From NCBI GenBank assembly GCA_949288805.1, contig CASELL010000003.1, positions 1,789 to 65,788 on the forward strand: a DNA stretch of 64,000 bases. The letters are read 5' to 3'. The stretch is from an uncultured Alphaproteobacteria bacterium. Lineage in GTDB: Bacteria > Pseudomonadota > Alphaproteobacteria > Rickettsiales > UBA1997. A model generated the notes under the pieces. The model searched no databases, had not been told where the DNA came from, and saw only the letters and a list, made by a program, of their open reading frames with translations. Both the position numbers and the translations under genes were made by a program. Below are positions 6,094 through 56,876 of the stretch, piece after piece (within the stretch, counting starts at the first letter, position 1; each line of letters begins with the position of its first letter).

Positions 6094-6101
6094 TATATTT
6101 C

Positions 6102-6563
6102 CTAATTAACATTATTATAACAATTAATTAATTTAATATCATATAATGGGTGTTCTAAACTAGATACACTAGGACTAGAAGAAAAAAACCAACCATAAAA
6201 AATATTTTCTTTCAATATGCTTTTCTTCTTTTTTTCATTTATTTTTAATAACAACTTATTTTCAACTCTTTCTTCTGGATAAGATTTCCAACATTTTAAA
6301 GCCTCTATTTCTAAATCACCAACCTTTGCAATATCTCCAATTTTTATATCTAAAATTACAGTTTCTCCTGTAGCTTTATTTAAAACCTGTATTTTTGTAT
6401 AATCAACAAACCGGTCGCTTGGTTGGTTTTTTATTAAATTTTTTTCTTCTTCCGGAACATTCTTTGAATTTAAATCATTTAAAAAACTACTTATATCATC
6501 AGACGAATAAGAACTCAAAGAAAAGATAAAAAAAATAAAAAAAAATAAACTACTTTTTATCAT
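6102..6563 (-). CDS. DUF2155 domain protein (secreted)
   Basis: 153 aa with a signal peptide. The core KIQVLNKATGETVILDIKIGD...LEIEALKCW is typical of DUF2155. It is adjacent to mlaD, as in many alphaproteobacteria. Confidence 0.65.
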   Translation of the reverse strand: MIKSSLFFFIFFIFSLSSYSSDDISSFLNDLNSKNVPEEEKNLIKNQPSDRFVDYTKIQVLNKATGETVILDIKIGDIAKVGDLEIEALKCWKSYPEERVENKLLLKINEKKKKSILKENIFYGWFFSSSPSVSSLEHPLYDIKLINCYNNVN

Positions 6564-7721: not shown

Positions 7722-10700
7722 ATGAGTAAATTTCAAAAGTTACCGATAGATGGAAACGAAGCAGTTGCTAGAATAGCATATAAAATGTCTGATGTTTTTA
7801 CTATCTATCCAATTACTCCTTCTTCACCTATGGGTGAATTAGCAGATCAATTTTCAGCTAAGGGAGATAAAAATATTTTTGGTTTAAAGCCTAGTGTTAC
7901 AGAAATGCAAAGTGAAGCTGGAGCAGTTGGTGCTATGCATGGTGCTTTACAAACAGGAAGTTTAGCTTCTACTTTTACTTGTTCTCAAGGTCTTTTATTA
8001 ATGATTCCTAATATGTATAAAATAGCTGGTGAATTAACTCCTTGTGTTATGCATATAGCAGCAAGAAGTCTAGCAGCACAAGGTTTATCTATATTTGGAG
8101 ATCATCAAGATGTTATGTCAGTTAGACAAACTGGTTTTGCTATGATATCTAGTGGATCAGTTCAAGAAGCACACGATACAGCTTTAATAGCACATTTAGC
8201 TACTTTAAAATCAAAAGTTCCTTTTATTAATTTCTTTGATGGTTTTAGAACTTCACATGAAATTAACAAAATAGAATTAATTGATGATGAAACTATTAAA
8301 TCATTAATTGAAGATAAATACATAATTGAACATAGAAATAGATCTTTAAGACCTGATGAACCAGTTATGAGAGGAACCGCTCAAAATCCTGATGTTTATT
8401 TTCAAGGAAGAGAAGTTTCTAACAAACTATATAATGAAATACCAAGTATAGTTCAAGAATATTTTGATAAATTTGCTAAATTAACAGGAAGACAATATCA
8501 TTTATTTGATTATTATGGTTCAAAAGATGCAGAAAGAGTTATAGTTATTTTAGGTTCAGGAGTTCAAGCAGTTAAAGAAACAATTGAAACTTTAAATAAT
8601 GAAAAAATCGGTGTTTTACAAGTTAGATTATACAGACCATTCTCTGCGAAAGATTTTGTAAAAGCTATTCCTTCTACTTGTAAAAAAATAGCCGTATTAG
8701 ATAGAACAAAAGAACCAGGAAGCTTAGGAGAACCTTTATATTTAGATGTTGTTTCTGCTTTACATGAGGAAGGAAGAAATAATATAGAGGTTATAGGTGG
8801 TAGATATGGCTTATCTTCAAAAGAGTTCACGCCACCTATGGTAAAAGCTATTTTTGATGAATTAAATAAGTCTAATCCTAAAAAACACTTTACAGTTGGT
8901 ATTAAAGACGATGTAACAAATTTAAGTCTTGATTATTCTAGTGATTTTGCAATTAAAAATAATGATGTAAAAGAAGCTATATTTTTTGGTCTAGGAAGTG
9001 ATGGAACAGTTGGTGCCAATAAAAATAGTATAAAAATCATTTGTGATAGAGAAGAGTATTATGGTCAAGCTTACTTTGTATACGATTCTAAAAAATCTGG
9101 CTCTATTACAGAATCTCATTTAAGATTTGGTAAAAATAAAATCGATTCTACTTATCTAGTACAAAAAGCAGACTTTATTGGTTGCCATCAATTTACATTC
9201 TTATTTAAAATTGATATTTTAGGAAGAATTAAAAATGGTGGAACTTTATTGTTAAATACTCATTATTCTAAGGATGAAGTTTGGGATCGCTTGCCAAAAG
9301 TAGTTCAACAAACAATAATTGACAAAAATGTTAAATTATATGTTATAGATGCTTATGAAGTAGCTGAAAAAGCAAAAATGGGTGCTAGAATTAATACAAT
9401 CATGCAAACTTGTTTCTTTAAGCTTGCTAATGTAATTCCAGCAGAAGAGGCTATTGAAGAAATTAAAAAAGCTATTGTTAAAACATATAGTAAAAAAGGT
9501 CAAGAAATTGTTGATAACAATATAAAAGCAGTAGATGGCAGTCTTGCTAATTTATATGAAGTAAATTATCCTAAAAATATTACAAGTAATATAGAATTAG
9601 ATAAGAGTGTTACTGACGATGCTCCTGAATTTGTAAAAGATTTTACTGCTAAAATCATAGCTGGTAAAGGTGAAGAAATTAAAGTTTCTGAAATGTCATT
9701 AGATGGAACTTTCCCTACTGATACTACAAAATATGAAAAAAGAAATATAGCAGATAAAATAGCAGTATGGGATCAATCAAAATGTATTAGTTGTGGTCAA
9801 TGTGTTTTGGCTTGTCCTCACTCTTGTCTTGAAGCTAAAGAGTATACAGACGATCAAATTAAAAACGCTCCTTCTTGCTTTAAATTCAAAGAAGTATTAG
9901 GTGATAAAACAGGTACAAAAAGATATACAATTCAAATCTCTCCTGAAGATTGTACGGGTTGTAGTATATGTGTCTTAGCTTGTCCTGTTGACGCTTTATC
10001 AATGCAACATAAACACGAAGTTATTGATAACGAAAAAACAAGTAAAAAATTCTTTGATACAATTAAAGGTAATGAAGTAGCAGATCCTAATAATATCAAA
10101 GATATTCAATATAAAGACTCTTTGTTTAAATATTCTGGTGCTTGTGCTGGTTGTGGTGAAACACCTTACCTATCATTAATTACAAAATTATTTGGTGATA
10201 GAATGGTTGTTGCTAATGCTACCGGTTGTTCTTCAATTTATGGTGGTAATTTGCCTACAACGCCATGGTCTAAAAACAAAGAAGGTAGAGGTCCAGCTTG
10301 GTCTAACTCTTTATTTGAAGATAATGCAGAATTTGGTCTTGGTTTTAAATTAAGCCAAGAAACACAAAGAGATGAAGCAATTGATCTTTTAAATAATTTA
10401 AAAGCTGAAATTGGTGAAGATTTAGTTAATGCTATAATTGAAAATTATGGTAAAAATAAAGATCAAGAAATTAAAGATCAAAGAGAAAGAGTTCAAGCTG
10501 TTAAAGATAAATTAGCTAAAATCAATACTTTTGAAGCTAAGCATTTAATAGCAATTATTGATGTAATGGTTGAAAGAAGTGTTTGGATTATAGGTGGTGA
10601 TGGCTGGGCTTATGACATCGGATTCGGTGGTTTAGATCATGTTATAGCAAGTGGTAAAAATGTAAATATATTAGTAATGGATACAGAAGTTTATTCAAAT

Positions 10701-11225
10701 ACAGGTGGACAAGCTTCAAAAGCTACTAATATGGGTGCTTCTGCTAAATTTGCTGTAAATGGAAAACCAACATTCAAAAAAGATCTTGGTGCTATTGCTA
10801 GAACATATGGTAATGTTTATATAGCACAAGTTGCTATTAGAGCAAATCCAATGCAAGCAATGAAAGCAATTAAAGAAGCTGAAGCTTATAATGGTCCATC
10901 AATTATAATTGCTTACTCTTCTTGTATAGCTCATGGCGCTCCATTAGAAACAAGCTTCACTCAACAAAAAAACGCTGTTGAAAGTGGTATGTGGTTATTA
11001 TATAGATATAATCCAGATTTATTAGCACAAGGAAAATCTCCAATGCAATTAGATTGTAAAGAACCTAAATTAGATTTATTGGAAACTTTCTTATATGCTG
11101 AAACTAGATATAGTTATATAAAGAAAACTAACCCAGAATATGCTAGTCAAGCTGTTGAACACTTGAAAGAACATATTACTAAAAAATGGAAAGAATATAA
11201 ATTATATGCAGATAATGCATTATAG
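7722..11225 (+). CDS. nifJ: Pyruvate:ferredoxin (flavodoxin) oxidoreductase, single-polypeptide type
   Basis: 1167 aa. It has two 4Fe-4S motifs (CISCGQCVLACP, CTGCSICVLACP) and the TPP-binding motif GGDGWAYDIGFGG. Domain order is typical of PFOR. Confidence 0.96.
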   Translation: MSKFQKLPIDGNEAVARIAYKMSDVFTIYPITPSSPMGELADQFSAKGDKNIFGLKPSVTEMQSEAGAVGAMHGALQTGSLASTFTCSQGLLLMIPNMYKIAGELTPCVMHIAARSLAAQGLSIFGDHQDVMSVRQTGFAMISSGSVQEAHDTALIAHLATLKSKVPFINFFDGFRTSHEINKIELIDDETIKSLIEDKYIIEHRNRSLRPDEPVMRGTAQNPDVYFQGREVSNKLYNEIPSIVQEYFDKFAKLTGRQYHLFDYYGSKDAERVIVILGSGVQAVKETIETLNNEKIGVLQVRLYRPFSAKDFVKAIPSTCKKIAVLDRTKEPGSLGEPLYLDVVSALHEEGRNNIEVIGGRYGLSSKEFTPPMVKAIFDELNKSNPKKHFTVGIKDDVTNLSLDYSSDFAIKNNDVKEAIFFGLGSDGTVGANKNSIKIICDREEYYGQAYFVYDSKKSGSITESHLRFGKNKIDSTYLVQKADFIGCHQFTFLFKIDILGRIKNGGTLLLNTHYSKDEVWDRLPKVVQQTIIDKNVKLYVIDAYEVAEKAKMGARINTIMQTCFFKLANVIPAEEAIEEIKKAIVKTYSKKGQEIVDNNIKAVDGSLANLYEVNYPKNITSNIELDKSVTDDAPEFVKDFTAKIIAGKGEEIKVSEMSLDGTFPTDTTKYEKRNIADKIAVWDQSKCISCGQCVLACPHSCLEAKEYTDDQIKNAPSCFKFKEVLGDKTGTKRYTIQISPEDCTGCSICVLACPVDALSMQHKHEVIDNEKTSKKFFDTIKGNEVADPNNIKDIQYKDSLFKYSGACAGCGETPYLSLITKLFGDRMVVANATGCSSIYGGNLPTTPWSKNKEGRGPAWSNSLFEDNAEFGLGFKLSQETQRDEAIDLLNNLKAEIGEDLVNAIIENYGKNKDQEIKDQRERVQAVKDKLAKINTFEAKHLIAIIDVMVERSVWIIGGDGWAYDIGFGGLDHVIASGKNVNILVMDTEVYSNTGGQASKATNMGASAKFAVNGKPTFKKDLGAIARTYGNVYIAQVAIRANPMQAMKAIKEAEAYNGPSIIIAYSSCIAHGAPLETSFTQQKNAVESGMWLLYRYNPDLLAQGKSPMQLDCKEPKLDLLETFLYAETRYSYIKKTNPEYASQAVEHLKEHITKKWKEYKLYADNAL

Positions 11226-12334: not shown

Positions 12335-12962
12335 ATGAAAAAATATTTTCAATAACATTATTAAGTTTTTTACTTTTAGTAAATAACTCTTTTGCAAAAC
12401 ATAATTTCTATATTGGTACTAATATCCAACATACAAATTATGATTTAAATATAATTATAATGACGATAATGGTATAACAAAAAATAAAGGTGTTTTTTCT
12501 GATGATAAAGTATTATCAGGAATAAGTGTCGGTGCTAGATTTTATTTCATGGATACTAAAATATTTATATCTCCAGAATTAATTATTAATATTTCAAATA
12601 ATATTGCTGAAGAAGTTGATGCATCAACTTTAAACAAAACAAGCATAAAAGAATTAGTTTCAAATAATTTAAAATTTGGATATGACCTTAAAGAAAAACT
12701 ATCTGTTTTTGTTTTAGTTGGAGGTTCATTAATGAAAAATACAGTATTTAAAAACAATTATTCTGGTTCCAATTTTATAGAAGATGAATTCCAAACAATT
12801 AATATTGGTTTCGGATTTGAATATTTTATAAAAAACAATATAGCGTTTGGTTTATCTTGGGTTATGAAAAATTCACTTAAAGAAGAATATGTTGGACCAT
12901 ATTATGAAGAATTTGAATCTTCTATGGATTCTATAATTTTTTCTATAAATTCATATTTTTAA
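12335..12962 (+). pseudogene. Outer-membrane beta-barrel protein gene with two frameshifts
   Basis: ATG at 12335 hits TAA after 6 codons. The signal peptide KIFSITLLSFLLLVNNSFA-KHNFYIGTN is readable one frame over, consistent with a one-base change in the A6 run at 12338-12343. That frame stops at 12475-12477. The remainder is track ORF 12549-12962, which is open from 12444 and ends in the OMP-type ...SINSYF. Confidence 0.7.
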
Positions 12963-12979
12963 TTATATAAAAAATATAC

Positions 12980-13017
12980 AAACTTGTTTAAGTTTATAAA
13001 TTTAAACAAGTTTTTTT
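12980..13017 (+). terminator. Rho-independent terminator after the OMP pseudogene
   Basis: aaacttgtttaa / ttaaacaagttt 12-bp stem followed by a T7 run. Confidence 0.7.
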
Positions 13018-13063
13018 GATTGATAATTTAAATATTATCAATATTCTATACTAAACTAAAATT

Positions 13064-13545
13064 ATTAAAAAATATCTTATTTTTATTAACAATAAATAAT
13101 TCTTTACTAAAACTTTTATATTAGTAATAATTTTAAACACACCAATCACAATATAATAGCTACATATAAATAGAGATAATTGATAACCTATATTATATAG
13201 AAACAAACAAAAAAATTAATTTTTTGTTTGGAATTAATGTTGAATATAAATATTATTATAAACCAAGCTTATTGGTATTACAAGAATTTAATATTAATTT
13301 ATTAAATACAACTTTTAATAACAAAATGTATTAAAAAATTATTAAAATATCTTTTAAAAAACAAAAAGAAATAACTACAGATATTTGTTTTAGTATTAAA
13401 TATTATCTTAACAATAAGATATCTCTCGATGCTTCATATATATTAAAAAAACTTTTCTTATTATATCAATAGCATGAATTACGAAACACTGAGTATGGAC
13501 AACATAATATCATTGCTTGATTTTGGTTTAAACTATTATTTTTAA
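13064..13545 (+). pseudogene. Heavily eroded tandem paralog of the upstream OMP gene
   Basis: Similarity to copy 1 is colinear. The start is attaaaaaatatc versus atgaaaaaatatt. The signal-peptide end is taaataattctttactaaaac versus taaataactcttttgcaaaac. The peptide GINVEYKYYYKPSLLVLQEFNINLLN parallels GISVGARFYFMDTKIFISPELIINISN. The C-terminal remnant is ...LLDFGLNYYF-stop (13543-13545). Multiple stops occur in all frames. Confidence 0.5.
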
Positions 13546-13559
13546 AAATTTAATTACAT

Positions 13560-13592
13560 AAAAAAACTACACTTTTATAAGTGTAGTTTTTT
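13560..13592 (-). terminator. Bidirectional hairpin terminator downstream of rbr
   Basis: aaaaaactacactt-ttat-aagtgtagtttttt is a perfect stem flanked by A and T runs, 18 nt after the rbr stop. Confidence 0.8.
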
Positions 13593-13609
13593 ATTACTTT
13601 ATAATAAAA

Positions 13610-14188
13610 TTAATATAATTTTTCATTTAATTCAATAAAGTATTCTTGTTTGTGGTTACAAGCAGGGCACACTAATGGAGCTTCAGCAGAAGCAACATGA
13701 TAACCACAATTTGTACATTTCCAAACAACTAGACCAGCTTTTTTGAATAATCCTTGTTTGTTTAAATCTTCAATAAGTTTATTGAATCTTTCTTCGTGAT
13801 AAGTTTCAGCAGTAGCTATATTTTCAAAAGCCTTAGCTATAACTTCAAAACCTTCATCTCTAGCTATTTTAGCAAATTCTGGATACATGTCGGCCCATTC
13901 TTCATGTTCACCATTAGCTGCTGCAACAAGATTTTCCATTGTTGTTCCAATTTTTCCTGCTGGGAAGGTAGCTGTAATTTCTAACATGTCACCTTCTTCT
14001 AAAAACTTAAAAAATCTTTTAGCATGTTCTTTCTCATGATTAGCTGTTTCTTCAAAAATAGCAGCTATTGTAGGATATCCTTCTTTTTTTGCTACACTAG
14101 CAAAATAAGTATATCTATTTCTAGCTTGAGATTCACCAGCAAAAGCTTTCATTAAATTTTCTTTTGTTTTGGTTCCTTCTAATTTCAT
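13610..14188 (-). CDS. rbr: Rubrerythrin
   Basis: 192 aa with an N-terminal ferritin-like diiron domain (EsqARNRY, EHAK, EEW motifs) and a C-terminal rubredoxin-like CTNCGY...CPACNH. Confidence 0.95.
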   Translation of the reverse strand: MKLEGTKTKENLMKAFAGESQARNRYTYFASVAKKEGYPTIAAIFEETANHEKEHAKRFFKFLEEGDMLEITATFPAGKIGTTMENLVAAANGEHEEWADMYPEFAKIARDEGFEVIAKAFENIATAETYHEERFNKLIEDLNKQGLFKKAGLVVWKCTNCGYHVASAEAPLVCPACNHKQEYFIELNEKLY

Positions 14189-14218
14189 TTTTATTTGTTA
14201 ATTGTTAAAACTATCGAA

Positions 14219-14246
14219 ATAATATTGCTCTTTTTTTAATAGTCAA
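14219..14246 (-). promoter_or_regulatory. Candidate sigma70 promoter for rbr (TTGACT-N16-TATTAT)
   Basis: On the minus strand the -35 ttgact is at 14241-14246 and the -10 tattat at 14219-14224, about 30 nt upstream of the rbr ATG. The AT-rich background makes chance matches likely. Confidence 0.35.
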
Positions 14247-14329
14247 TATTTAAATAATTAATAAATATATTTTATTGTTTTTTATTTTTTATATATTAAA
14301 ATCAACTAAGAAATATTGTCATTAAATTT

Positions 14330-15676
14330 ATGCTAAAAATAAGAAAAAATCTAAATTTAAATAATAATAATTTAAAAGAAATAAATCTATCTGGAGATAT
14401 ATTAATATCGAAATTAATATTATTAGTAGCCAGTTTGTGTGATGGTATATCTACAATAAAAAATATATCTGTATCGAAAGATATTATATTATTAGAAAAT
14501 ATATTAAAAAACTTTGGTATAAACATAATTAATAATGATAACACGTTGGTGAATGGTCTAAATATTAAAAAATGGAAACAGCCGAGTAATTTTATTGATT
14601 TTGAGAAATTGGTTGATATACTTTTTTATATGTTAAATATATTATCAAAAACTAATTTTAAAACTTTTATTACTATGAATGAAAATTTGTTAAATATTAA
14701 TTTTGATAATTTAAGTTATTTACAATCAAACAATAATTTGGTTTTTAGGGATAAACATACTCTCCCGGTGTTAGTTAATGGAACTTCGGATTTTAAAAAA
14801 AATAAAATAGATGTTGATAATACAATTGATAAATATTCCATAATATTTAATGCAATTGCTAATAATTATGATTGTTTAATTAATGAAAAAGAATTAAAAG
14901 AAGAATACCTTGAATCAATAATAAGATATTTTGGTTTTAACATAAAAGAAAAGCTTTCGGAAGCTAGAAATATATTAAATAAAGACTGTAAAAAAAGCAA
15001 AGAAATATTGATTTTATCAAATAAAGAGAAAATAACCGGAAAAGAATTTGTTGTTCCTGCGTCACAGCTAGAAGCTTCTTATGTTTTGTTCTTATCTTCG
15101 ATTTTGGGGGTTAAAGAATTATTAATACCAAATATAGCATTAAATGAACTAAATACGGACATTGTAAAAACACTGTCAGACAATGGTCTTAATATAACTT
15201 ATAAAAATCAAAAGATAGTAAATAACTTAAAGGTTTTAGATATACACTTTAAAGAAAGTATATTAAATGAGGTTTCTGTATCTGAAAAAAGATTGTCAAA
15301 CATAATTGATGATCTTCCTCTTATTATAATGTTAAATGTTTTAAAAAAGAATAAAATAAACATAGTTGGAATAAAAGAATTAAAATTAAAAAATAATAGA
15401 AATTATGTAGAATTCTTAAATATAATAAAATCTATTAATGTTTCCGCAATAGAAAATAAAAATATATTAGAAATCAATCCAGAAGCGTTATCTATACCAG
15501 ACAATCCAATTTTATTAGACGAAATAGATGGAATTACCAACAAAACAAAATTAGTTTTGTTTTTAAGTAATATAGCTCTTTCTAAAAATGTTTTTGAATT
15601 AAATGATAGAGAAGTTTTTGATGTATTTCCAAATATATATGGAGTTTTAGAACAATTAAATTTAGAAATAGAATGA
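14330..15676 (+). CDS. EPSP-synthase-fold protein (AroA-like), highly divergent with catalytic motifs not conserved
   Basis: 448 aa, the normal AroA length. LSGDILISKLILLVASLCDGISTIKN aligns with PGDKSISHRALLLAALAEG.T.I.N. VPASQLEASYVLFLSSIL aligns with VPGD.SSAAF. LKLKNNRNY sits in the place of LR.KESDR. Confidence 0.5.
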   Translation: MLKIRKNLNLNNNNLKEINLSGDILISKLILLVASLCDGISTIKNISVSKDIILLENILKNFGINIINNDNTLVNGLNIKKWKQPSNFIDFEKLVDILFYMLNILSKTNFKTFITMNENLLNINFDNLSYLQSNNNLVFRDKHTLPVLVNGTSDFKKNKIDVDNTIDKYSIIFNAIANNYDCLINEKELKEEYLESIIRYFGFNIKEKLSEARNILNKDCKKSKEILILSNKEKITGKEFVVPASQLEASYVLFLSSILGVKELLIPNIALNELNTDIVKTLSDNGLNITYKNQKIVNNLKVLDIHFKESILNEVSVSEKRLSNIIDDLPLIIMLNVLKKNKINIVGIKELKLKNNRNYVEFLNIIKSINVSAIENKNILEINPEALSIPDNPILLDEIDGITNKTKLVLFLSNIALSKNVFELNDREVFDVFPNIYGVLEQLNLEIE

Positions 15677-33157: not shown

Positions 33158-33541
33158 ATGAAAAAAAACAATATGATATATAAATGTAGTGTTTGTGGTA
33201 ATGTAATTGCCATTAATCACTTTGGAGGAGGCAAATTAGTATGTTGTAATAAAGAAATGTTTCTTTTGGACGAAAAAACAAAAGATGGGGCTAACGAAAA
33301 ACATCTCCCAGTATTAACAAAAATAGATGATAATACCTATAAAGTTGTTGTTGGAGAAGTTGAACATCCAATGACAGAAGAACATTATATAGAATACATT
33401 GAAGTTCTTACAGACAAAAATGAAAGGCTTACATCTTTTATAAAAGATAAACCAGAAGCAATATTTAAAACAGAAAACAAAATAGTTAGTGTTTCTTCAT
33501 ATTGTAATCTTCATGGTTTATGGACTTTAAATATTAAATAA
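33158..33541 (+). CDS. dfx: Desulfoferrodoxin (2Fe superoxide reductase)
   Basis: 127 aa. The N-terminal desulforedoxin motif is CSVCGN...VCCNKEM. Center II ligands are EKHLPV, HPMTEEHYIEYI and CNLHGLW. Confidence 0.92.
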   Translation: MKKNNMIYKCSVCGNVIAINHFGGGKLVCCNKEMFLLDEKTKDGANEKHLPVLTKIDDNTYKVVVGEVEHPMTEEHYIEYIEVLTDKNERLTSFIKDKPEAIFKTENKIVSVSSYCNLHGLWTLNIK

Positions 33542-37582: not shown

Positions 37583-38215
37583 CTAAAAATTTCTGTTTAG
37601 TTTATCATATCTTTTATGAATACATTGTAAAGTGGTTTTATGAACTCCTTTTGTTATATCGTAGTATACAAATCTTCCATCTCTTTTACATTTTACAAAT
37701 CCATCATCATGAAGCTTTTTTAAATACTGCGATACTTTTGCCTGTTTAATATCTGTATTTTTAACAATTTCCGAAACACAATTCTCACCATTAACAAGCA
37801 AAAAATCTAATATTTTAACTTTATCTATATTAGCAAATAATTTTATTCTACTAGCAACCATAGAAGTATAATCAATTGGTAGTATTTCTTTATAATCGTC
37901 ATCTAAAAATCTATCTTGATTAGATATAACAGCAAAAAGTTTTCTAATACAAACAAAAATGCTCGCTGGATATTCTTCAAATATACTATAATAAACAAAT
38001 ACACCGTCTTTTTTTGATTTTACTAGTTTAGCATCTTTTAGCTTTTTTAGATTTTGAGATATTATAATCTGTTCTTCATTTAAATCTGTTGTTATTTTGG
38101 ATACAGAAGAAGAACCACAAACATCAAGATATTCAAGTATTCTTAATCTTAATGGATGGGCTATATATGTCAGTCCAACTACAGCTTTTTTTAGAATATT
38201 TTCAGGTAATGTCAT
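37583..38215 (-). CDS. Transcriptional regulator with two tandem ArsR/SmtB-type winged-helix domains
   Basis: 210 aa. HPLRLRILEYL...VSKITTDL...ISQNLKKLKDAKLV...GVFVYYSI is repeated as KVKILDFLL...VSEIVKNT...VSQYLKKLHDDGFV...GRFVYYDI. Confidence 0.75.
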   Translation of the reverse strand: MTLPENILKKAVVGLTYIAHPLRLRILEYLDVCGSSSVSKITTDLNEEQIIISQNLKKLKDAKLVKSKKDGVFVYYSIFEEYPASIFVCIRKLFAVISNQDRFLDDDYKEILPIDYTSMVASRIKLFANIDKVKILDFLLVNGENCVSEIVKNTDIKQAKVSQYLKKLHDDGFVKCKRDGRFVYYDITKGVHKTTLQCIHKRYDKLNRNF

Positions 38216-42364: not shown

Positions 42365-42869
42365 TGTTTAGAAATTTGTTTCCAAAAATATAAAAAATTA
42401 CACAATATACAATATTAAAGAGTATATTCAATAAAAAAGTAACAAACGGCAAAAAATTTAAACTATAATACGATAAAACAAACCACTCTAAAACAAAAAA
42501 TATAATCATAAAAATAGAAACATCTCTTATAAAATATATAAAATATGTATCGTTTACCAAAAATTTTTTAATTAAAAAAAATAACCTATAAGAAATTAAT
42601 AAACAAAAACTAGATAAAAACATAGGAATAAAAGTATAAGAGTCCATTATCAAACCAAGTAAAAATAAATTAATTGAGGAATACAAATTAATATTTGTAT
42701 TCCACAAAAACTTAAAAAATATTAAAGTTATACATAAATTCGGAAGTGTTTTTAGCAATACATTTGAACTATTGCTAAAAATAACAAAAAAAATAAATAT
42801 AGAGTAAAATATAAAATATCTAACTATTATATCTATTTTGCTTTCCGAATTGCCACCATGTTTAAACAT
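42339..42869 (-). CDS. mreD: Rod shape-determining protein MreD (putative)
   Basis: 176 aa, polytopic membrane protein immediately upstream of and overlapping mrdA, the canonical mreD position. Confidence 0.55.
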   Translation of the reverse strand: MFKHGGNSESKIDIIVRYFIFYSIFIFFVIFSNSSNVLLKTLPNLCITLIFFKFLWNTNINLYSSINLFLLGLIMDSYTFIPMFLSSFCLLISYRLFFLIKKFLVNDTYFIYFIRDVSIFMIIFFVLEWFVLSYYSLNFLPFVTFLLNILFNIVYCVIFYIFGNKFLNNVQSIRRT

Positions 42870-43432
42870 TATTTACTTTTTTTACCATAATTGTTTATAT
42901 AATCACCTATTAATTGAGTTATAACATTAATAGTTGTATCTTTATTCAAGTATGTAGTATTAACAACTATATCTGTTGTATTATATATAGGATATTTTTC
43001 ATTATATAATTGAGTCATAGTTTCTGCTTTATCTTTACCTTCTAAAACAGGTCTATTGTTTCTTCTTTCGACTCTTTTTATTAAAACATCCAAATCAACA
43101 TCTAGAAAAATAGATATAGCTTTTTCTTTTATTATTTTTCTAACTTCCTCATTGTCATACGAATTGCCTCCTATTGATAAAACTTGCGGCTTCGTAATAT
43201 TTAATATTTTTTTTATAACTTTTTTCTCAACTTCTTTATAATATTGTTCGCCTTTTTTCTCAAAAATTTCAGTAGTAGTCATATTTTCTGATTTTTCTAT
43301 TTCTCTATCAGAATCTACAAACTTAATACCTAATCTTTGTGCTAAACCAAAACCTGTGGTTGTTTTTCCTGCCCCCATCATTCCTATTAAAACTATAGTT
43401 CTTCTTTGTGACGGGTGTAAAGTCTCTTCCAT
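42869..43432 (-). CDS. aroK: Shikimate kinase
   Basis: 187 aa with Walker A LIGMMGAGKTTTG, DSD and GGN(S) motifs. Confidence 0.85.
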   Translation of the reverse strand: MEETLHPSQRRTIVLIGMMGAGKTTTGFGLAQRLGIKFVDSDREIEKSENMTTTEIFEKKGEQYYKEVEKKVIKKILNITKPQVLSIGGNSYDNEEVRKIIKEKAISIFLDVDLDVLIKRVERRNNRPVLEGKDKAETMTQLYNEKYPIYNTTDIVVNTTYLNKDTTINVITQLIGDYINNYGKKSK

Positions 43433-45449: not shown

Positions 45450-46641
45450 TAATATTTTTAATAAGAATTTAATTGCTTTATTTAAAATATTAATAAATAA
45501 AGGAGATGAAGCTAGATTAGTTGGTGGTTGTGTTAGAAATTATATTTTAAATAAAGAAATAAATGACTATGATATAGCAACAATATATACTCCTAATGAA
45601 TTGGAACAAATATTAACAAAAAACAATATTGCTTTTTTAACTGTTGGTAAAAAATTTGGAACAATAACAGCCTTATATAGAGGAGAAAAATATGAAATAA
45701 CAACATTAAGAAAAGATATAAAAACAGATGGAAGACATGCAATTGTAGAGTTCACAAGAGATTATAAAGAAGATGCAAAAAGAAGAGACTTTGCTTTTAA
45801 TGCCATGTACATAGATTTTAATGGAAAATTATATGATTATTTTAATGGACTAGAAGATTTAATTAATAATAATATATCTTTTATAGGGGATGCACAAAAA
45901 AGAATAGATGAAGATAATTTAAGAATACTACGTTTTTTTAGGTTTTATGGTTCGTATTGTTTTTCATCAAATTATAATGATTTATCTATTTGTAAAAAAA
46001 ATAAAAACAAAATAAAAAACCTTTCTTTAGAAAGAATTAGTGATGAAATACATAAAGCAATGCTATCAGATTCTTTTCTTGATATATTAACAATTATGCA
46101 AAATAACGATATTTTACAAGATATTTTCAAGACATATATAAATTTTAATAATCTAGAATTGTTTTTTTATATAAGAAAAAATCTCAATTTTCACTATAAC
46201 CATCTTTTTATTATAGCGTTGATATTATCAAACAATAAAATAAACTATGAACTATTACTTTCAAAAAAAGAAAAAAAATATATAAATACAATACTTCAAA
46301 ATATTCCAAAAATAATCAATAAATTTGAGATTAAGAAATTATTGTTTAATTTAAAGGATAAATTGTTAGTAAAAAATATAATAATTATTTATTTTTGTAA
46401 TAATTATAAAAACTTTAAAATTATAGAAAAAAACTTAAAACTTGTTGATAAATTAAATATACCAGCATTAGAAATAAATGGTGATGATCTAAAAAATAAT
46501 AATTTTAATATTAATAAATATGAATATAAAAAACTATTAGAACAAGCAAAGAATATTTTTGTAAGCAGTAATTTTAAAATAAAAAAAGAAAAAATTATAA
46601 AAAAACTATTAAAAGTAAATAACAAAAAAGAACATAAATAA
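45424..46641 (+). CDS. cca: CCA-adding enzyme / poly(A) polymerase family nucleotidyltransferase
   Basis: 405 aa with RLVGGCVRNYIL...DYDIAT and the RRDF..NAM motif. Confidence 0.88.
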   Translation: MFLLEKNYSNIFNKNLIALFKILINKGDEARLVGGCVRNYILNKEINDYDIATIYTPNELEQILTKNNIAFLTVGKKFGTITALYRGEKYEITTLRKDIKTDGRHAIVEFTRDYKEDAKRRDFAFNAMYIDFNGKLYDYFNGLEDLINNNISFIGDAQKRIDEDNLRILRFFRFYGSYCFSSNYNDLSICKKNKNKIKNLSLERISDEIHKAMLSDSFLDILTIMQNNDILQDIFKTYINFNNLELFFYIRKNLNFHYNHLFIIALILSNNKINYELLLSKKEKKYINTILQNIPKIINKFEIKKLLFNLKDKLLVKNIIIIYFCNNYKNFKIIEKNLKLVDKLNIPALEINGDDLKNNNFNINKYEYKKLLEQAKNIFVSSNFKIKKEKIIKKLLKVNNKKEHK

Positions 46642-48036
46642 GATAACTAAAAAAATTGAGAAATATGTTGTTAATAAAAGTCTTTTATTTGTTTTTGTAT
46701 CACTGTCTTCTTGTCTTTCGATAATATTTTTATTTACTAAAACCTTAAATATAATAAAAACAATGGATATTTTATTAACTATAAATGGCACTAAAAGAAT
46801 ATAATTTTTATCACTAAAAATAGATATAAAAAAATATTTATTAGCGATAAAACTCGAAGCTATTGGTAAATAAAGTCTATATAAAAGTATAACTATAAAA
46901 AAAACTTTTAAAAACTTACTATTATTTAACGCTGCTATGTTGTTTGTTTTATATTTTAAAGATATCATATCAGAAAAAAAATATAATGTTAAACTTATAA
47001 ATAGAAAATCTAAAACATAATCTATAACAATAGCAACATCATCATATAAAAATATAGCAATTACTGTATAAAATATACCGATCAAATTTAGTCTTATAAA
47101 AATATTAAATATAGAATTGTAGTTTTCCTTTTTAAACAACAATATAGAGTTATATATAATAGAAATAATAGATAAATATATAAATATTTTATCAATAAAA
47201 AATAAGTTAAATATATTTTCTGTTGGCAAAATATAAAAAATAACATTTGAAAGAAGAAAAATACCCAAAAGGCTATTTACAAATATATTTGATATTGAAA
47301 TAAAATTAACCGTTTTATAATCAGTATTATGATATCTACTAACACTATTTGTAAAAAACCTAATAACCACAGAAAAAACAAATAATAATATTATTAAGAA
47401 TATATTATAATATTCTTCTAATCTAATTGTTAATAATTGTTGTTTTATCAAAAAAATACTACTTGTATTAAAATATACTAACATATAAAATATGCTTAAC
47501 ATATTTAATATTGAACCAAAGATATTATTTGAGAAATATTTATATGACAATATGTTTAAATTTGTATCTTTATAATTTGTTATTATTATATAATTTGAAA
47601 AAGAATACAATTCTAAAAAAATAAATAAATGAAATATATTATCTGTCAATAATATACCTATAGTTGAAAATATATGTAAAAAATATATAGAGAAAAAATG
47701 TTTTATATATCCTATATCTTTCTTTTTTGTTAAAACTAAATCATCAACATAGTTTATAAAACCTATAAAATTTATAAACAAAATATTAACTAAAAAAAAT
47801 ATATTAAAAATATCCAATTTGAATTCTGTTCCTATTATATTAAACGTTGCTGTTGAATTTACAATTATAGTTGTATTTGGATCGATACTACTAAATATTT
47901 TAATTGTAAAAATTGTTAAGGTCATTAATATTAAATAACCAACATTACTTAAAAATCTCTTTCCCTCTAAGAAATAAATAAAAACAGAGGACATTAATGG
48001 AATAAAATATAATAAATAAGATAATGTATTACTCAT
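46609..48036 (-). CDS. Mrp/Mnh antiporter subunit D-like (NuoN/Proton_antipo_M family) membrane protein, degenerate
   Basis: 475 aa with about 14 TM segments. DNIFHLFIFLELYSFSNYIIIT and SYKYFSNNIFGSILNMLSI follow the family pattern. The canonical K..PFH.W.P segment reads IRFFTNSVSRYHNTD. Confidence 0.6.
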   Translation of the reverse strand: MSNTLSYLLYFIPLMSSVFIYFLEGKRFLSNVGYLILMTLTIFTIKIFSSIDPNTTIIVNSTATFNIIGTEFKLDIFNIFFLVNILFINFIGFINYVDDLVLTKKKDIGYIKHFFSIYFLHIFSTIGILLTDNIFHLFIFLELYSFSNYIIITNYKDTNLNILSYKYFSNNIFGSILNMLSIFYMLVYFNTSSIFLIKQQLLTIRLEEYYNIFLIILLFVFSVVIRFFTNSVSRYHNTDYKTVNFISISNIFVNSLLGIFLLSNVIFYILPTENIFNLFFIDKIFIYLSIISIIYNSILLFKKENYNSIFNIFIRLNLIGIFYTVIAIFLYDDVAIVIDYVLDFLFISLTLYFFSDMISLKYKTNNIAALNNSKFLKVFFIVILLYRLYLPIASSFIANKYFFISIFSDKNYILLVPFIVNKISIVFIIFKVLVNKNIIERQEDSDTKTNKRLLLTTYFSIFLVILFMFFFVIYF

Positions 48037-48304
48037 TTTTATTGCTGTTTATTATGTTATTAATTATAAATATTCCACTTAGAATATTTATTAAACAATT
48101 AAAAATTATTAAAATTATAAAATCTATAATTGAATTTTCTATATTAAAAACATTCATATTATATATAACAAAAAATAATATAATGTTATAAGCAAAAGCT
48201 AACACTAATATTTTTAATATTGGTTTTCTTGTAAATAAAAAAACAAACATTAATACAAAAAATAATAATAAAAATAAATATAAAAATAATTCTTTAAAAA
48301 ACAT
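48029..48304 (-). CDS. Small 3-TM membrane protein in the MrpC/NuoK position
   Basis: 91 aa. The assignment rests on size, topology and position immediately upstream of the D-like subunit. No strong motif. Confidence 0.4.
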   Translation of the reverse strand: MFFKELFLYLFLLLFFVLMFVFLFTRKPILKILVLAFAYNIILFFVIYNMNVFNIENSIIDFIILIIFNCLINILSGIFIINNIINSNKNE

Positions 48305-48576
48305 TACTTAACTAAAATATTTAAAAAATAATATATAAAACATAAAAAACAAAATAAAAATATACTAATAAACTTTTTAAAAGAAATAACCTTAAATGGG
48401 TTTATTTTTCCAAATCTCAAATAAAACAATATATAAGATATTAATACAGATATTGAAAAATTTAATAATGTTAAAACGCCAAATTCTTTGATATAAAAAA
48501 AACAAGTAACAGAATATAATAATAAAAACGGTATTAAAAAAGAAATTAATATCTTTAAAAACAAATCACCTATCAT
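48304..48576 (-). CDS. Small membrane protein in the MrpB/MnhB position
   Basis: 90 aa with 3 predicted TM segments. It overlaps its neighbours by 1-4 nt. Confidence 0.35.
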   Translation of the reverse strand: MIGDLFLKILISFLIPFLLLYSVTCFFYIKEFGVLTLLNFSISVLISYILFYLRFGKINPFKVISFKKFISIFLFCFLCFIYYFLNILVK

Positions 48577-49187
48577 TTTTGCCTCATATTATTTATAATA
48601 AAGAAAGATATTAACATAATTATATAAAATAATATTATTAGATTATAATGTTTAAAAAATCCATTGTTTTCTATAAAACTTATATTCTTGTTATATACAA
48701 TGTATGTTTTTTCTTTTGTATTAATGTATAATTTTTCTTGTTTTAAATCATCTTTATTTTTATAATAATAATTTTTATCTGTTAGTATATTATTATTTAA
48801 TTGATTTGTATAAAGTCTTTCTCTATTACTACTTAAAGAAAAAAAGATAAATGAAATTAAAATAAAACTAAAAACAAATATTATAATAGTTAATATATTT
48901 TTTATGTCACTGTTCTCAATATAGTCCGATGAAAGCAAATTTGAGTTGGGATCTAAATAAATATAAAAAAAAACCATAGATAATATAAAAAATATATTTA
49001 ATGTAACAATAGATAAAAAATTAATTTCATTTTTTATAATAATTGAATAATTAAAAATATTTATAAAACAAGAAATAAAAAATACCATAAACTTAGAATC
49101 AATTGTTTTTGTATAAAAAACAAAAGCTATATAAACTAATGCCACTAGTAATGTAAAAAATATATCAAGGTTGGCTATTATATCCAT
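48573..49187 (-). CDS. Polytopic membrane protein (possibly equivalent to the MrpA C-terminal/DUF4040 region)
   Basis: 204 aa with about 5 TM segments. It is the first gene of the tightly overlapping four-gene membrane set. Confidence 0.35.
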   Translation of the reverse strand: MDIIANLDIFFTLLVALVYIAFVFYTKTIDSKFMVFFISCFINIFNYSIIIKNEINFLSIVTLNIFFILSMVFFYIYLDPNSNLLSSDYIENSDIKNILTIIIFVFSFILISFIFFSLSSNRERLYTNQLNNNILTDKNYYYKNKDDLKQEKLYINTKEKTYIVYNKNISFIENNGFFKHYNLIILFYIIMLISFFIINNMRQK

Positions 49188-49251: not shown

Positions 49252-49782
49252 TTATATGCCTCTCTGTTTACCAGCTGCCCTATCCCTAGCATGCATCATA
49301 TTAACCCAATAACCAGCATCATTCTGTTCTCTTAATATATCAGCTTGTTGCATCAAGCTTGTAACTCTTTGTCCCATAATTAAAGAAGTCCAATAACCAA
49401 TAGGCTTTACTATTCCTACAATATTTTTTTTATTATAATTAGGTTCTTCACCAACAACCTGTCCTACTTTCGGCAACCTTTGGACATTTTTTAATTGTAA
49501 ATCTTGTTGTCTTTGTTTTTCTTTTTCAATTATTTTAGCTTCTCTTTCTTTTTGCTTTTCTATATCTTTATCTCTAAATAAAACATCATTTCTATTAGAT
49601 GGAACATAACCACCACCACTTTCAAATGATTCTTTTGGTCTAATTAGAGATAAAAGTTGCATATACTTTTTAATTGTGTATTTATAAAATATAGTAGCAA
49701 TTATTCTTATTATTGTAATTATAAAAAAAACTACAAAAGATAAAAAACATATAAAAATAATTGCTTCTTTTAAATCAAACAT
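49252..49782 (-). CDS. Hypothetical membrane-anchored protein co-oriented 2 nt downstream of hydA
   Basis: 176 aa with one N-terminal TM segment, a KE-rich coiled region and the C-terminal block VGIVKPIGYWTSLIMGQRV...GYWVNMMHARD. No family recognised. Confidence 0.55.
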   Translation of the reverse strand: MFDLKEAIIFICFLSFVVFFIITIIRIIATIFYKYTIKKYMQLLSLIRPKESFESGGGYVPSNRNDVLFRDKDIEKQKEREAKIIEKEKQRQQDLQLKNVQRLPKVGQVVGEEPNYNKKNIVGIVKPIGYWTSLIMGQRVTSLMQQADILREQNDAGYWVNMMHARDRAAGKQRGI

Positions 49783-49784
49783 TT

Positions 49785-51089
49785 TTAATTATTATTATCA
49801 AAAGTTCTATAAAATAAAGTATGTTTATAATCTTTAGATTTACTCCAATCTAAATAGTCAATTAAATTACTATTATCAAGAGCACATTTAATTTTATTTG
49901 AATTATCAAGACTATTTAAAACAGATCTTCTTTTTTCAATTAAATCTTGTTCTGCTCCTGCCTTAGGTGGTAATAAAGGTTGACCTCCACCATTAAGACA
50001 ACCACCATTACAATTCATTACTTCAATGTAAATATATTCTTTGTATTTACCTGTTTCAATAAACTTTTTAATATTTTTAGGTGTATGTATTACAGCAACT
50101 TTCAACTTTTTATTATCAATTTCAAGTTCTGCTTCTTTGAAAGAATAATCCTCTTCATTTACTTCTTTAAATTCTAATTTATCAAGTGCTTTGTTTTCTA
50201 GCTTCTTTTTTACAACTCTCAAAGCAGATTCCATTACACCACCACTTTTTCCATAAATTACAGCACCACCACTATATTTAGATAAATCATCTGCTTCACT
50301 TTCTTCAAGATTTAAAAAGTCTATATTTTCATCTTTCATTAATTGACCAAATTCTCTAACAGTAATAGAATAGTCAACAGGATTATATTTCTTGTATATA
50401 TGTATTTCATCTTTTTTAGAAGTACAAGGCATAATTGAAACAACAACTATATTTTTAGGATCTATGTTGTTTTTTTCTGCCCACCAAGTTTTATAAGCTA
50501 TTCCTGAATGGATATGTGGCGACATTGCAGTAGTAAGATTGTTTATTAATTCTGGTTTATATCTTTCAACAAAATTTACCCATGAAGGACAACAAGAAGT
50601 AAACATTGGGAGTTTATTTTCTTCAATTCTTTCTAATAATTCTTCTGCTTCTGCATAACTTGTAATATCTGCTCCAAAATTAACATCAAAAATCTTATCA
50701 AAACCTAACATTCTTAAAGCAGTATTAATTTTCTTTTCCATTAATGGACTATGTTCTGCTTTAAATATTTCATTAATTGAAGTTCTAACCGAAGGGGCAC
50801 ATTGAACTATTTTAATTTTAGTTTTATCTTTTAATAAAGTTTTTATTTCTTCAATATTTCTTTGCTCTATCATACAATTAAAAGGACAAACAAGAGTACA
50901 TTGACCACAATTTACACAAGGATTTTCTTTTACAAAATCAAGATATCTTTCTTTGCCTTCGCCTTTAATTGTTAAATGATCTATTCCTATCAAATTACAT
51001 TTTTGTACACATTTAGTACATTTAGTACATTTAGATCTAATAAATTCAATAGAATAATCTTTTTTTACTATATCTTCCATAAAAAACAT
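49785..51089 (-). CDS. hydA: [FeFe]-hydrogenase catalytic subunit, M2 architecture (2x[4Fe-4S] plus H-cluster domain)
   Basis: 434 aa. The ferredoxin-like motifs are CTKCTKCVQKC and CVNCGQCTLVCP. The H-cluster signatures are FTSCCPSWV, IMPCTSKKDE and EVMNCNGGCLNGGGQP. Confidence 0.93.
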   Translation of the reverse strand: MFFMEDIVKKDYSIEFIRSKCTKCTKCVQKCNLIGIDHLTIKGEGKERYLDFVKENPCVNCGQCTLVCPFNCMIEQRNIEEIKTLLKDKTKIKIVQCAPSVRTSINEIFKAEHSPLMEKKINTALRMLGFDKIFDVNFGADITSYAEAEELLERIEENKLPMFTSCCPSWVNFVERYKPELINNLTTAMSPHIHSGIAYKTWWAEKNNIDPKNIVVVSIMPCTSKKDEIHIYKKYNPVDYSITVREFGQLMKDENIDFLNLEESEADDLSKYSGGAVIYGKSGGVMESALRVVKKKLENKALDKLEFKEVNEEDYSFKEAELEIDNKKLKVAVIHTPKNIKKFIETGKYKEYIYIEVMNCNGGCLNGGGQPLLPPKAGAEQDLIEKRRSVLNSLDNSNKIKCALDNSNLIDYLDWSKSKDYKHTLFYRTFDNNN

Positions 51090-56282: not shown

Positions 56283-56876
56283 ATGTTTTACGATATAGTT
56301 TTCCCTGAATCAATTTCTATAAAATCAAGTTATATAATTGAATACAATACAATTATAAATAAATCAAAAAATGGAGGAGAATTAAGAATATCAAACTACG
56401 ATTATCCATTATTATCTTACAATGTTATCAACGACCTCAAAACAAAAAAAGAATTAGAAGAAATAATAAATTTTTTTAAATTGGTTAAAGGTAGAGCCTG
56501 TGGTTTTAAATTTAAAGATTGGCTAGACTATAAAGCGATAAATCAAAATATAGCAATAGCTAATGGAGAACAAACAGAATTTCAATTAATAAAAACATAC
56601 AATATAAATAATAAAATACAAATTAGAAAAATAACAAAACCAGAAAATGTTTCTGTTTTTGTAAATCAACAAAATATTACACAAAATATAAATATAAATT
56701 ATAGTAGTGGAATTATTACTTTTAATACACCACCAGAAAAAGATACCATAATAACAGCCACTTTTGACTTCTATGTTCCAGTAAGATTTGATAATGACAA
56801 AATAGAAATAATAATGAAAAATGATAAAGTTGGAGAAATAAAAGATTTAAAAATAGTAGAATTATTAGGCTGTTAA
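56283..56876 (+). CDS. DUF2460 / TIGR02217-type phage or GTA distal-tail protein homolog (orphan)
   Basis: 197 aa. FYDIVFPESIS...GGELRISNY...FFKLVKGRACGFKFKDWLDY matches the conserved N-terminal pattern of the RcGTA g12 family. Confidence 0.65.
   Translation: MFYDIVFPESISIKSSYIIEYNTIINKSKNGGELRISNYDYPLLSYNVINDLKTKKELEEIINFFKLVKGRACGFKFKDWLDYKAINQNIAIANGEQTEFQLIKTYNINNKIQIRKITKPENVSVFVNQQNITQNININYSSGIITFNTPPEKDTIITATFDFYVPVRFDNDKIEIIMKNDKVGEIKDLKIVELLGC

Follow-up and report, generated by a model that had tools for sequence, protein, structure and literature searches.

Does a small, AT-rich genome of the Rickettsiales type encode a working hydrogenase, and if so, how did the gene come to be there and what would it be used for? 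The question is raised by a stretch of 64,000 nucleotides (64 kb) of contig CASELL010000003.1, from an uncultured alphaproteobacterium, which we call the window, and which carries on its minus strand hydA, a gene for an [FeFe]-hydrogenase. We consider it probable that hydA encodes a monomeric, ferredoxin-dependent group-A hydrogenase of M2 type that is predicted to be functional, that the gene has been inherited vertically, and that its host is an obligately anaerobic, reduced, Rickettsiales-like bacterium. The gene and the parts of its product are laid out as follows.

49785..51089, minus strand: hydA, M2-type group-A [FeFe]-hydrogenase, 434 amino acids (aa), ATG start, stop codon at 49785-49787.
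50871..51035, minus strand: F-domain with two [4Fe-4S] ferredoxin-type clusters, residues 19-73 (Pfam Fer4_21/Fer4_7).
49986..50813, minus strand: H-domain with the H-cluster pocket, residues 93-368 (Pfam PF02906, model positions 3-245 of 245).
50577..50603, minus strand: H-cluster motif L1, FTSCCPSWV, in which C166 is the proton-relay Cys and C167 a ligand of [4Fe-4S]H.
50406..50432, minus strand: H-cluster motif L2, MPCTSKKDE, with M220, C222 and K225.
49977..50024, minus strand: H-cluster motif L3, EVMNCNGGCLNGGGQP, with M358, C360 and the bridging C364.
49788..49976, minus strand: C-terminal tail, equivalent to the hydrogenase small subunit (SSU) but diverged, residues 372-434, alignable to the Clostridium pasteurianum hydrogenase CpI up to residue 549.

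The catalytic domain is recognised without ambiguity, Fe_hyd_lg_C (PF02906) matching over its full model with E = 2e-76 and 257.3 bits against a gathering cut-off of 22.1. The motifs that characterise the class, TSCCPxW (L1), MPCxxKxxE (L2) and ExMxCxxGCxxGGGQP (L3), hold the four Cys ligands of the H-cluster. Within the F-domain, translation of the exact coordinates gives the two CxxCxxCxxxC motifs CTKCTKCVQKC and CVNCGQCTLVC, whose cysteines are C21, C24, C27, C31, C58, C61, C64 and C68. Gene callers in public assemblies start the gene three codons later, at the second Met, which yields a protein of 431 aa. The 63-residue tail is helical in the AF2 model of the protein; the small-subunit family PF02256 was not detected by Pfam in this tail or elsewhere in the clade of close relatives, and it was detected in many more distant relatives of ~435 aa (for example P0028 and P0031-P0037).

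N-terminal to the H-domain, Fer4-type Pfam matches are found at residues 19-73 only, and the alignment to CpI begins at CpI residue 135. Because no further domain precedes the Fer4 and H-domains, the protein has the M2 architecture. No HydB/HydC (NuoE/NuoF-like) genes were found near hydA in the window or at any related locus examined; the neighbours in the window are trmD, a transketolase gene, a small gene that we call orfX, and hydrophobic open reading frames (ORFs). Since NuoE/F-like neighbours are missing, HydA is not of the bifurcating kind (group A3), and it is not of the M3 type either. As an enzyme it appears, from its sequence, to be an ordinary member of the group-A M2 [FeFe]-hydrogenases. 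The non-catalytic HydA-like proteins (Nar1/Narf, and the sensory groups C and D) were rejected as an identity for it, as the catalytic residues are all present and no PAS or other domains have been added.

Is the active site intact? We mapped 26 functionally characterised positions of CpI onto HydA and onto an alignment of 29 members of its clade. HydA is identical to CpI at 23 of the 26, and the remaining three carry substitutions typical of the clade, namely (in CpI numbering) S319T and F417Y in all 29 sequences and Q325H in 26 of them; the replacement of S319 by Thr throughout the clade looks conservative. Twenty-one positions are strictly invariant across the 29 sequences, in an alignment whose mean column identity is only 67%. 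Of the other five, three are Cys columns in which one sequence has a gap, and two vary: S100 is Ala in one sequence and H192 is Gln in three. Such invariance at this level of overall divergence is therefore indicative of selection for a working H-cluster.

The pattern holds for each functional group of residues. The eight F-domain cysteines correspond to the ligands of the CpI clusters FS4A and FS4B (C147-C200); C21, C24 and C27 are present in 28 of the 29 sequences (one gap) and the other five in all of them. The H-cluster ligands C167, C222, C360 and C364 align to CpI C300, C355, C499 and C503 and are invariant in the 29 relatives, and so are K225, M220, M358, A98 and P99, while 28 of the 29 have Ser at S100. 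The proton pathway, whose residues (C299, E279, E282, R286 and S319 in CpI) tell group A apart from the sensory or putative groups, is likewise preserved, except for the Thr at S319: C166 (CpI C299) and E147, E150 and R154, identical to the CpI set E279/E282/R286, are invariant in the clade. A first-pass annotation of this DNA had described a complete-looking M2 [FeFe]-hydrogenase ORF of normal length (434 aa), with its three H-cluster signatures and two CxxCxxCxxxC motifs intact; the first statement is borne out by the ORF, the Pfam matches, the CpI match and the residue map, and the motifs were all recovered on translation.

The closest solved structure is CpI (phmmer 1e-95, 39-40% identity), and the AF2 model of HydA (pLDDT 87, pTM 0.89) matches it in Foldseek along the whole length (E = 7e-37, TMq 0.87-0.88, ~448 aligned columns). 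The enzyme is thus whole, with its residues conserved, and catalysis is predicted. CpI (HydA1; PDB 1FEH, 3C8Y, 4XDC), itself a ferredoxin-dependent group-A enzyme, shares with HydA the H-domain, the FS4A/FS4B clusters, the proton-relay residues and the C-terminal wrap; it differs in being an M3 enzyme, with additional N-terminal [2Fe-2S] and His-ligated [4Fe-4S] domains (~130 residues) that HydA lacks, and at the three substituted positions S319T, Q325H and F417Y. HydA shares its domain plan with the M2 enzyme DdH of Desulfovibrio desulfuricans (PDB 1HFE), which also has an F-domain with two [4Fe-4S] clusters followed by an H-domain (6e-66 to the DdH large subunit; TMq 0.83 to linked DdH variants). 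However, DdH is periplasmic and has a separate small subunit exported by the twin-arginine (Tat) pathway, whereas HydA has a fused, diverged SSU-like tail and no signal peptide, and the gene that follows hydA, orfX, encodes a membrane-anchored partner unrelated to the DdH small subunit. The same M2 domain plan is found in Megasphaera elsdenii HydA and in the short, ~50-kDa hydrogenosomal HydA of parabasalids.

Three further genes of the window bear on the metabolism in which such an enzyme would work.

7722..11225, plus strand: pyruvate:ferredoxin (flavodoxin) oxidoreductase (PFOR), 1167 aa (TIGR02176, 1726.7 bits against a cut-off of 911).
13610..14188, minus strand: rubrerythrin, for peroxide detoxification of the anaerobe type (NF045767, 277.5 bits against a cut-off of 200; also Pfam).
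33158..33541, plus strand: desulfoferrodoxin/superoxide reductase (Pfam Desulfoferrodox and Desulfoferrod_N).

PFOR carries the Pfam domains POR_N, POR, EKR, Fer4 and TPP_enzyme_C. Desulfoferrodoxin scores slightly below the cut-off of TIGR00320 (138.7 against 146.9 bits), and both of its domain models are above theirs. All three proteins are hallmarks of strict anaerobes, and since they are encoded in the same 64 kb we conclude that the organism is an anaerobe, as the first-pass annotation had supposed from hydA. They co-occur with a hydA that is native to this genome (see below). PFOR is the likely source of low-potential electrons; acting through ferredoxin, it is the classical electron donor of monomeric [FeFe]-hydrogenases in clostridia and hydrogenosomes.

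These genes suggest a simple scheme. PFOR would convert pyruvate to acetyl-CoA and CO2 and reduce a low-potential carrier, presumably a ferredoxin whose gene lies elsewhere in the genome (the 64 kb, the recovered flanks and the related hydA loci yielded no free-standing ferredoxin gene). Electrons would enter HydA through the two accessory [4Fe-4S] clusters and pass to the H-cluster, and protons would arrive through the relay E150-T186-E147-C166, with R154 at the pathway entrance. The H2 released would serve as a sink for the PFOR-derived electrons, acetyl-CoA would yield ATP by substrate-level phosphorylation, and rubrerythrin and superoxide reductase would shield the oxygen-sensitive chemistry. 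The direction of the reaction and the identity of the carrier are to be taken as predictions of this scheme. A related contig labelled 'Rickettsiales bacterium' (L011, a metagenome-assembled genome (MAG) whose HydA is 48% identical) has an ADP-forming acetyl-CoA synthetase gene (12810-14894, plus strand) two genes from hydA, together with GAPDH (5502-6524, minus strand), a gene set that fits an acetate-forming ATP step of the Entamoeba/Giardia style.

How did hydA come to be in this genome? [FeFe]-hydrogenases are often transferred, and the large comparative studies of Rickettsiales covered here mention no hydrogenase, so that a recent transfer from a clostridial or host source, or a chimera of assembly or binning, has to be weighed. 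We regard a foreign origin of this kind as the least probable of all the explanations considered, close to negligible. The window has 24% GC, and hydA is indistinguishable from core genes in composition: its GC content at third codon positions (GC3), 0.106, lies close to the average for the window, 0.119 +/- 0.027 (z = -0.47), and in its use of synonymous codons it is mid-distribution relative to the other window genes. The locus is identical, with the same junctions, in independent ENA and Logan assemblies from different samples. The closest sequences outside the clade are at most 50-55% identical to HydA.

Within the clade, the divergence of HydA runs parallel to that of housekeeping genes. 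Its homologues form an identity ladder of 100, 85, 79, 71, 63 and 56%, similar to that of FtsH from the same window (100, 84, 78, 76, 73, 65 and 60%). Compared with the relative represented by L001/L008, and on the same contig, HydA is 69% identical, FolD 64.5%, MlaD 65.3% and DUF2155 56.4%; hydA is thus better conserved than these neighbours. The hydA-bearing contigs of relatives are all of 22-31% GC and filled with housekeeping genes; several carry genes of a type IV secretion system in the style of Rickettsiales (VirB6/TrbL, VirB2, VirD4, VirB8, VirB9), and two (L101 and L102) carry genes like those of gene transfer agents (GTAs). OEP/MFP efflux genes adjoin hydA in L001/L008, and they do so again in L102, a sister lineage at 60% identity. 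Several ORFs flanking hydA have no family detectable in Pfam or NCBIfam.

In a BLOSUM62 neighbour-joining tree, built without support values and without hydrogenosomal sequences, the window's HydA falls inside a clade with every 'Rickettsiales bacterium'-labelled sequence of at least 56% identity; outside it stand further M2 groups and then M3 enzymes. A scan of a genome collection for HydA recovered one clade member only (L001), and a metagenome scan with the in-clade alignment returned, among the matches listed, only generic HydAs of at most 50% identity. There was no eukaryote-labelled HydA among the 120 best matches, and the nearest named representatives outside the clade are DPANN archaea.

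These results establish hydA as a native gene rather than a recent import. Its spread through the clade, roughly clock-like, makes long residence and vertical inheritance probable, to the degree that the explanation as a whole is; hydA may have been acquired long ago, at the root of the clade. The codon-usage comparison that the first-pass annotation had proposed thus finds hydA to be like the core genes, and its remark that the gene is better conserved than many neighbours is confirmed by the comparison with L001/L008. Its suggestion of lateral acquisition is contradicted, as far as recent transfer goes, by codon usage and by the clade-wide, clock-like distribution, and survives only as an ancient basal event. 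The bearing that it saw on debates about mitochondrion-related lineages is not strengthened by these matches, in which HydA gives no sign of any special relatedness to eukaryotic HydAs.

What is the host? Among the 120 best matches of FtsH, every sequence with an informative name is a MAG labelled 'Rickettsiales bacterium' or 'Rickettsiaceae bacterium'; besides these there are two generic Proteobacteria/Pseudomonadota labels and one 'Bacilli bacterium'. The HydA relatives with informative names are likewise Rickettsiales or Rickettsiaceae MAGs, and L001 is labelled 'uncultured Rickettsiales bacterium'. These labels, together with 24% GC and a GC3 of ~12%, agree with the earlier impression of a reduced alphaproteobacterium-like genome. 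'Candidatus Hydrogenosomobacter', weighed as the source organism, was set aside on account of the 41% GC of its genome. The window also contains a lone gene for a phage distal-tail protein of the Rcc01695/GTA type (DUF2460, TIGR02217 above cut-off; 56283-56876, plus strand, overlapping radC by 12 nucleotides (nt)). It is probably what remains of an alphaproteobacterial GTA cluster. The distal-tail family TIGR02217 is typical of alphaproteobacteria. The host is probably a genome-reduced, Rickettsiales-like alphaproteobacterium that lives as a symbiont in anoxic guts or protists, presumably inside cells. Reduced, AT-rich alphaproteobacterial lineages (Rickettsiales, UBA3830 and RUG11792) have been described from termites, UBA3830 also from ruminants, and are suspected to be endosymbionts of protists (PMC11257099, 2024); the window probably belongs to this gut assemblage.

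As a separate observation, one single-cell bin labelled 'Bacilli bacterium' (HydA P0014, locus tag FACS1894152; FtsH P0157) nests among the Rickettsiales-labelled sequences at 64-70% identity; this bin is probably mislabelled or mixed.

Several points weigh against the explanation that we prefer. The assignment to Rickettsiales rests on the labels of submitters rather than on a phylogenomic tree, and GTDB may place gut MAGs of this kind in the neighbouring orders UBA3830 and RUG11792 (PMC11257099). The HydA tree is a neighbour-joining tree with no support values. NCBIfam model TIGR02512 (FeFe_hydrog_A) scores HydA at 388.9 bits (E = 2e-116), 17 bits under the curated NCBI cut-off of 405.95, a threshold set for annotation rather than a criterion of biochemistry; the shortfall plausibly stems from the extreme AT-driven bias in amino-acid composition. 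The substitutions S319T, Q325H and F417Y fall at functionally characterised positions and may affect catalysis. The catalytic direction is not readable from sequence. Finally, the maturases HydE, HydF and HydG were not found in the 64-kb window or in the 4-10 kb beyond its ends, nor in the sequence up to 10 kb from hydA at about ten related loci.

The last of these points would be explained if HydE/F/G had been lost and HydA were made but never matured, either as an apo-protein with another role (Fe-S or electron transfer) or as the product of a decaying gene. No maturase gene is present in any of the accessible sequence, that is, the window, its flanks and the related loci, and the only radical-SAM CxxxCxxC protein of the window is a spurious 68-aa ORF in a non-coding frame, with none in the flanks or near hydA at the related loci. 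There are precedents in both directions: some gut alphaproteobacteria have HydA with all three maturases, and Rhodospirillum rubrum and some amitochondriate eukaryotes have HydA without them (PMC4967309). We nevertheless find an unmatured HydA improbable. C364, K225, M220, M358, P99 and C166 are invariant in 29 diverged sequences, and S100 is kept in 28 of them; these residues matter only for the 2Fe subcluster and for proton delivery. The gene is free of frameshifts and has diverged less than core genes nearby. That residues with no use outside the 2Fe subcluster stay invariant is an indirect argument that HydA is matured.

As to the missing maturase genes themselves, hydEFG are commonly unlinked to hydA. 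The extension of the window, made through identical proteins, added on one side RuvC with a type I restriction-modification system, and on the other the remainder of an ORF of ~4000 aa. The sequence inspected makes up under 10% of a genome of typical size (0.7-1 Mb). Because hydEFG are so often unlinked and well under a tenth of the genome is covered, their not being seen here is not evidence of absence; HydE, HydF and HydG are presumably encoded elsewhere in the genome.

The question of direction leads to the main rival, in which HydA takes up H2 in an H2-rich niche, supplied for example by the hydrogenosomes of gut protists. The enzyme would then reduce ferredoxin for the synthesis of pyruvate by PFOR, or provide reductant for rubrerythrin and superoxide reductase. 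Group-A enzymes are bidirectional, PFOR is reversible in principle, rubrerythrin and desulfoferrodoxin do require a reductant, and the relatives come from gut and termite-type metagenomes. However, monomeric M2/M3 ferredoxin-linked enzymes that occur with PFOR normally evolve H2, in fermenters and in hydrogenosomes. HydA has no signal peptide, and no cytochrome, Tat signal or periplasmic small subunit is found as a partner for it. The ADP-forming acetyl-CoA synthetase of L011 suggests, moreover, that pyruvate is used oxidatively. H2 uptake is therefore in our judgement unlikely, and we favour H2 evolution as the role of HydA.

A different kind of question is posed by the genes that follow hydA on the same strand.

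49252..49782, minus strand: orfX, 176 aa, lineage-specific and membrane-anchored, its ATG lying 2 nt after the TAA stop of hydA.
46609..49187, minus strand: four very hydrophobic overlapping ORFs (204, 90, 91 and 475 aa), beginning 64 nt after orfX.

The spacing suggests that orfX is translationally coupled to hydA. Its product combines an N-terminal transmembrane (TM) helix and a helical linker rich in K and E with a C-terminal motif, IVGxVKPxGxWT...GYWVNM, that is conserved; in the AF2 model (mean pLDDT 63) only the TM helix is confident. Only 27 homologues were found in 5.8 billion clustered proteins, all of them without a Pfam family, and the family ranges from 155 to 176 aa. Relaxed Pfam and NCBIfam searches found no family for orfX or for the 204-, 90- and 91-aa ORFs. 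In the window, in L006 (10016-10501) and in L101 (6661-7143) the gene comes immediately after hydA, with different flanks each time; five further homologues are on contigs of the same size as those of HydA matches. The lineage of L001/L008 lacks orfX at the position downstream of hydA, and one 33%-identical homologue does not adjoin hydA. The alignment of the family shows no cofactor-binding residues or motifs. Our best guess is that orfX serves HydA as a tether or escort at the inner membrane. It was rejected as a small subunit of the Desulfovibrio type: HydA already has an SSU-equivalent tail of its own, fused to it, and the N-terminus of orfX has no twin-arginine motif.

Of the hydrophobic ORFs, the 475-aa protein matches PRK12662 (3.2e-18, 65.8 bits against a cut-off of 700) and, in the PDB, MbhH (6cfw_H, 2.8e-6) and MrpD (7qru_D, 0.057); the GC content of its first codon positions (GC1) is about 0.19. 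It appears to be a degenerate antiporter-type subunit like MrpD/NuoN, and the cluster may be a decaying Mrp-type antiporter operon. Together with HydA and orfX, these proteins could in principle form a membrane-bound, possibly ion-translocating [FeFe] module, an analogue of the [NiFe] hydrogenases of the Mbh/Ech type. The coupled hydA-orfX pair is conserved across lineages, and orfX has a confident TM anchor. The four hydrophobic ORFs come next in the same orientation, with no terminator-like site intervening, in a promoter and terminator scan that was uninformative in 24%-GC DNA (58 sites against 57 expected). The best PDB match of the 475-aa protein, MbhH, belongs to the membrane-bound hydrogenase of Pyrococcus.

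Several observations speak against such a module. The 475-aa protein is extremely degenerate, as its score against the PRK12662 cut-off indicates, orfX has no residues for a cofactor, and its distant homologue stands away from hydA. Other genes neighbour hydA in L006, L101, L001, L009, L013 and L102. Mrp antiporters have been reported from Rickettsiales genomes, so the adjacency may be incidental. Because the Mrp-like cluster adjoins hydA in the window's species only, a functional link between the two is a low-probability speculation, and we regard the membrane module as highly improbable. Both the hydA-orfX pair and the degenerate MrpD-like cluster after it are new here.

How unusual is a hydrogenase in such a bacterium? 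The first-pass annotation had treated the combination of HydA and an alphaproteobacterium as exceptional, which it is to a lesser degree than supposed, since gut alphaproteobacteria with HydA, HydE/F/G, pyruvate:ferredoxin oxidoreductase (there PFO) and a short ferredoxin (Acetobacter sp. CAG:977, Azospirillum sp. CAG:239 and CAG:260) were reported in 2016 (Degli Esposti et al. 2016, PMC4967309). These CAG bacteria and the window's organism are alike as alphaproteobacteria of the anoxic-gut type with HydA and PFO, the likeness drawn here being one of gene content; the CAG genomes were assigned to Rhodospirillales and have M3 and 'type A' enzymes, whereas the window has an M2 enzyme in a far more AT-rich lineage labelled Rickettsiales. 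A second parallel is offered by the Anoxychlamydiales (MCF-E; PMC8242063), anoxic lineages of a classically intracellular group with an [FeFe]-hydrogenase and PFO, in which H2 is the electron sink. Their enzymes are trimeric, electron-bifurcating and of group A3, whereas HydA is of the monomeric type without HydB/HydC neighbours.

The trait therefore extends a known set of anaerobic alphaproteobacteria with hydrogenases, and its conserved partner gene orfX is noteworthy. In the literature we found no description of a hydrogenase, PFOR or anaerobiosis in Rickettsiales-labelled lineages, and the large comparative-genomics studies of Rickettsiales covered here do not mention hydrogenases, ferredoxin or anaerobiosis in their own text; the trait thus appears to be undescribed in these lineages, though the MAG proteins are public. 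To our knowledge, the described Rickettsiales are respiring intracellular bacteria. They are also the textbook comparison for the mitochondrial ancestor. If our explanation is true, a diverse, reduced, Rickettsiales-labelled lineage with PFOR, an intact HydA and the oxygen defence of anaerobes would show that such a body plan can run on H2-producing fermentation. Hydrogenosomes have this metabolism, and the hydrogen hypothesis ascribes it to the ancestor of mitochondria. Within gut protists, such bacteria would be a further likely source or sink of H2, which would bear on methanogenesis and acetogenesis in systems of the termite and rumen type. The importance of the finding is limited by three things: HydA has no special eukaryotic affinity, gut alphaproteobacteria with the full toolkit are known (PMC4967309), and the maturases were not located in the sequence covered.

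A broader proposal, which we put forward tentatively and hold to be less likely than not to be right in full, is that the clade is an entire radiation of Rickettsiales-like bacteria that belong to anoxic gut protists and are probably intracellular. In these, respiration would have been replaced by a conversion of pyruvate to acetyl-CoA and H2 of the hydrogenosome type, with HydA inherited vertically since the origin of the clade, accompanied by its partner orfX and possibly docked to the Mrp-like module. If so, they would be a bacterial parallel to the evolution of hydrogenosomes, in the order most often compared with mitochondria.

Some minor features of this genome and its relatives are worth recording. 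Just beyond the window start lie a type I restriction-modification system (HsdM, HsdS) and ruvC (L094, 12621-15676), so that a defence system has been kept in a strongly reduced genome. The ORF listed at 57579-64000 (minus strand) with 2131 aa is truncated where the window stops; public assemblies of this organism (L096-L099) have it as one gene of ~4000 aa (3999-4024 aa), in which no Pfam domain was found. A giant protein of 1897 aa with a VirB6/TrbL domain is encoded in L006, and host-associated bacteria often have giant proteins of this sort. An EPSP-synthase-like protein of 448 aa (14330-15676, plus strand) scores 75.9 bits against an aroA cut-off of 287, and the shikimate kinase (42869-43432, minus strand) looks intact; in a genome this reduced, the shikimate pathway may be decaying or put to another use. 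A 210-aa protein (37583-38215, minus strand) has two tandem ArsR/winged-helix domains, at residues ~18-67 and 132-185, a duplicated regulator that is unusual for a small genome.

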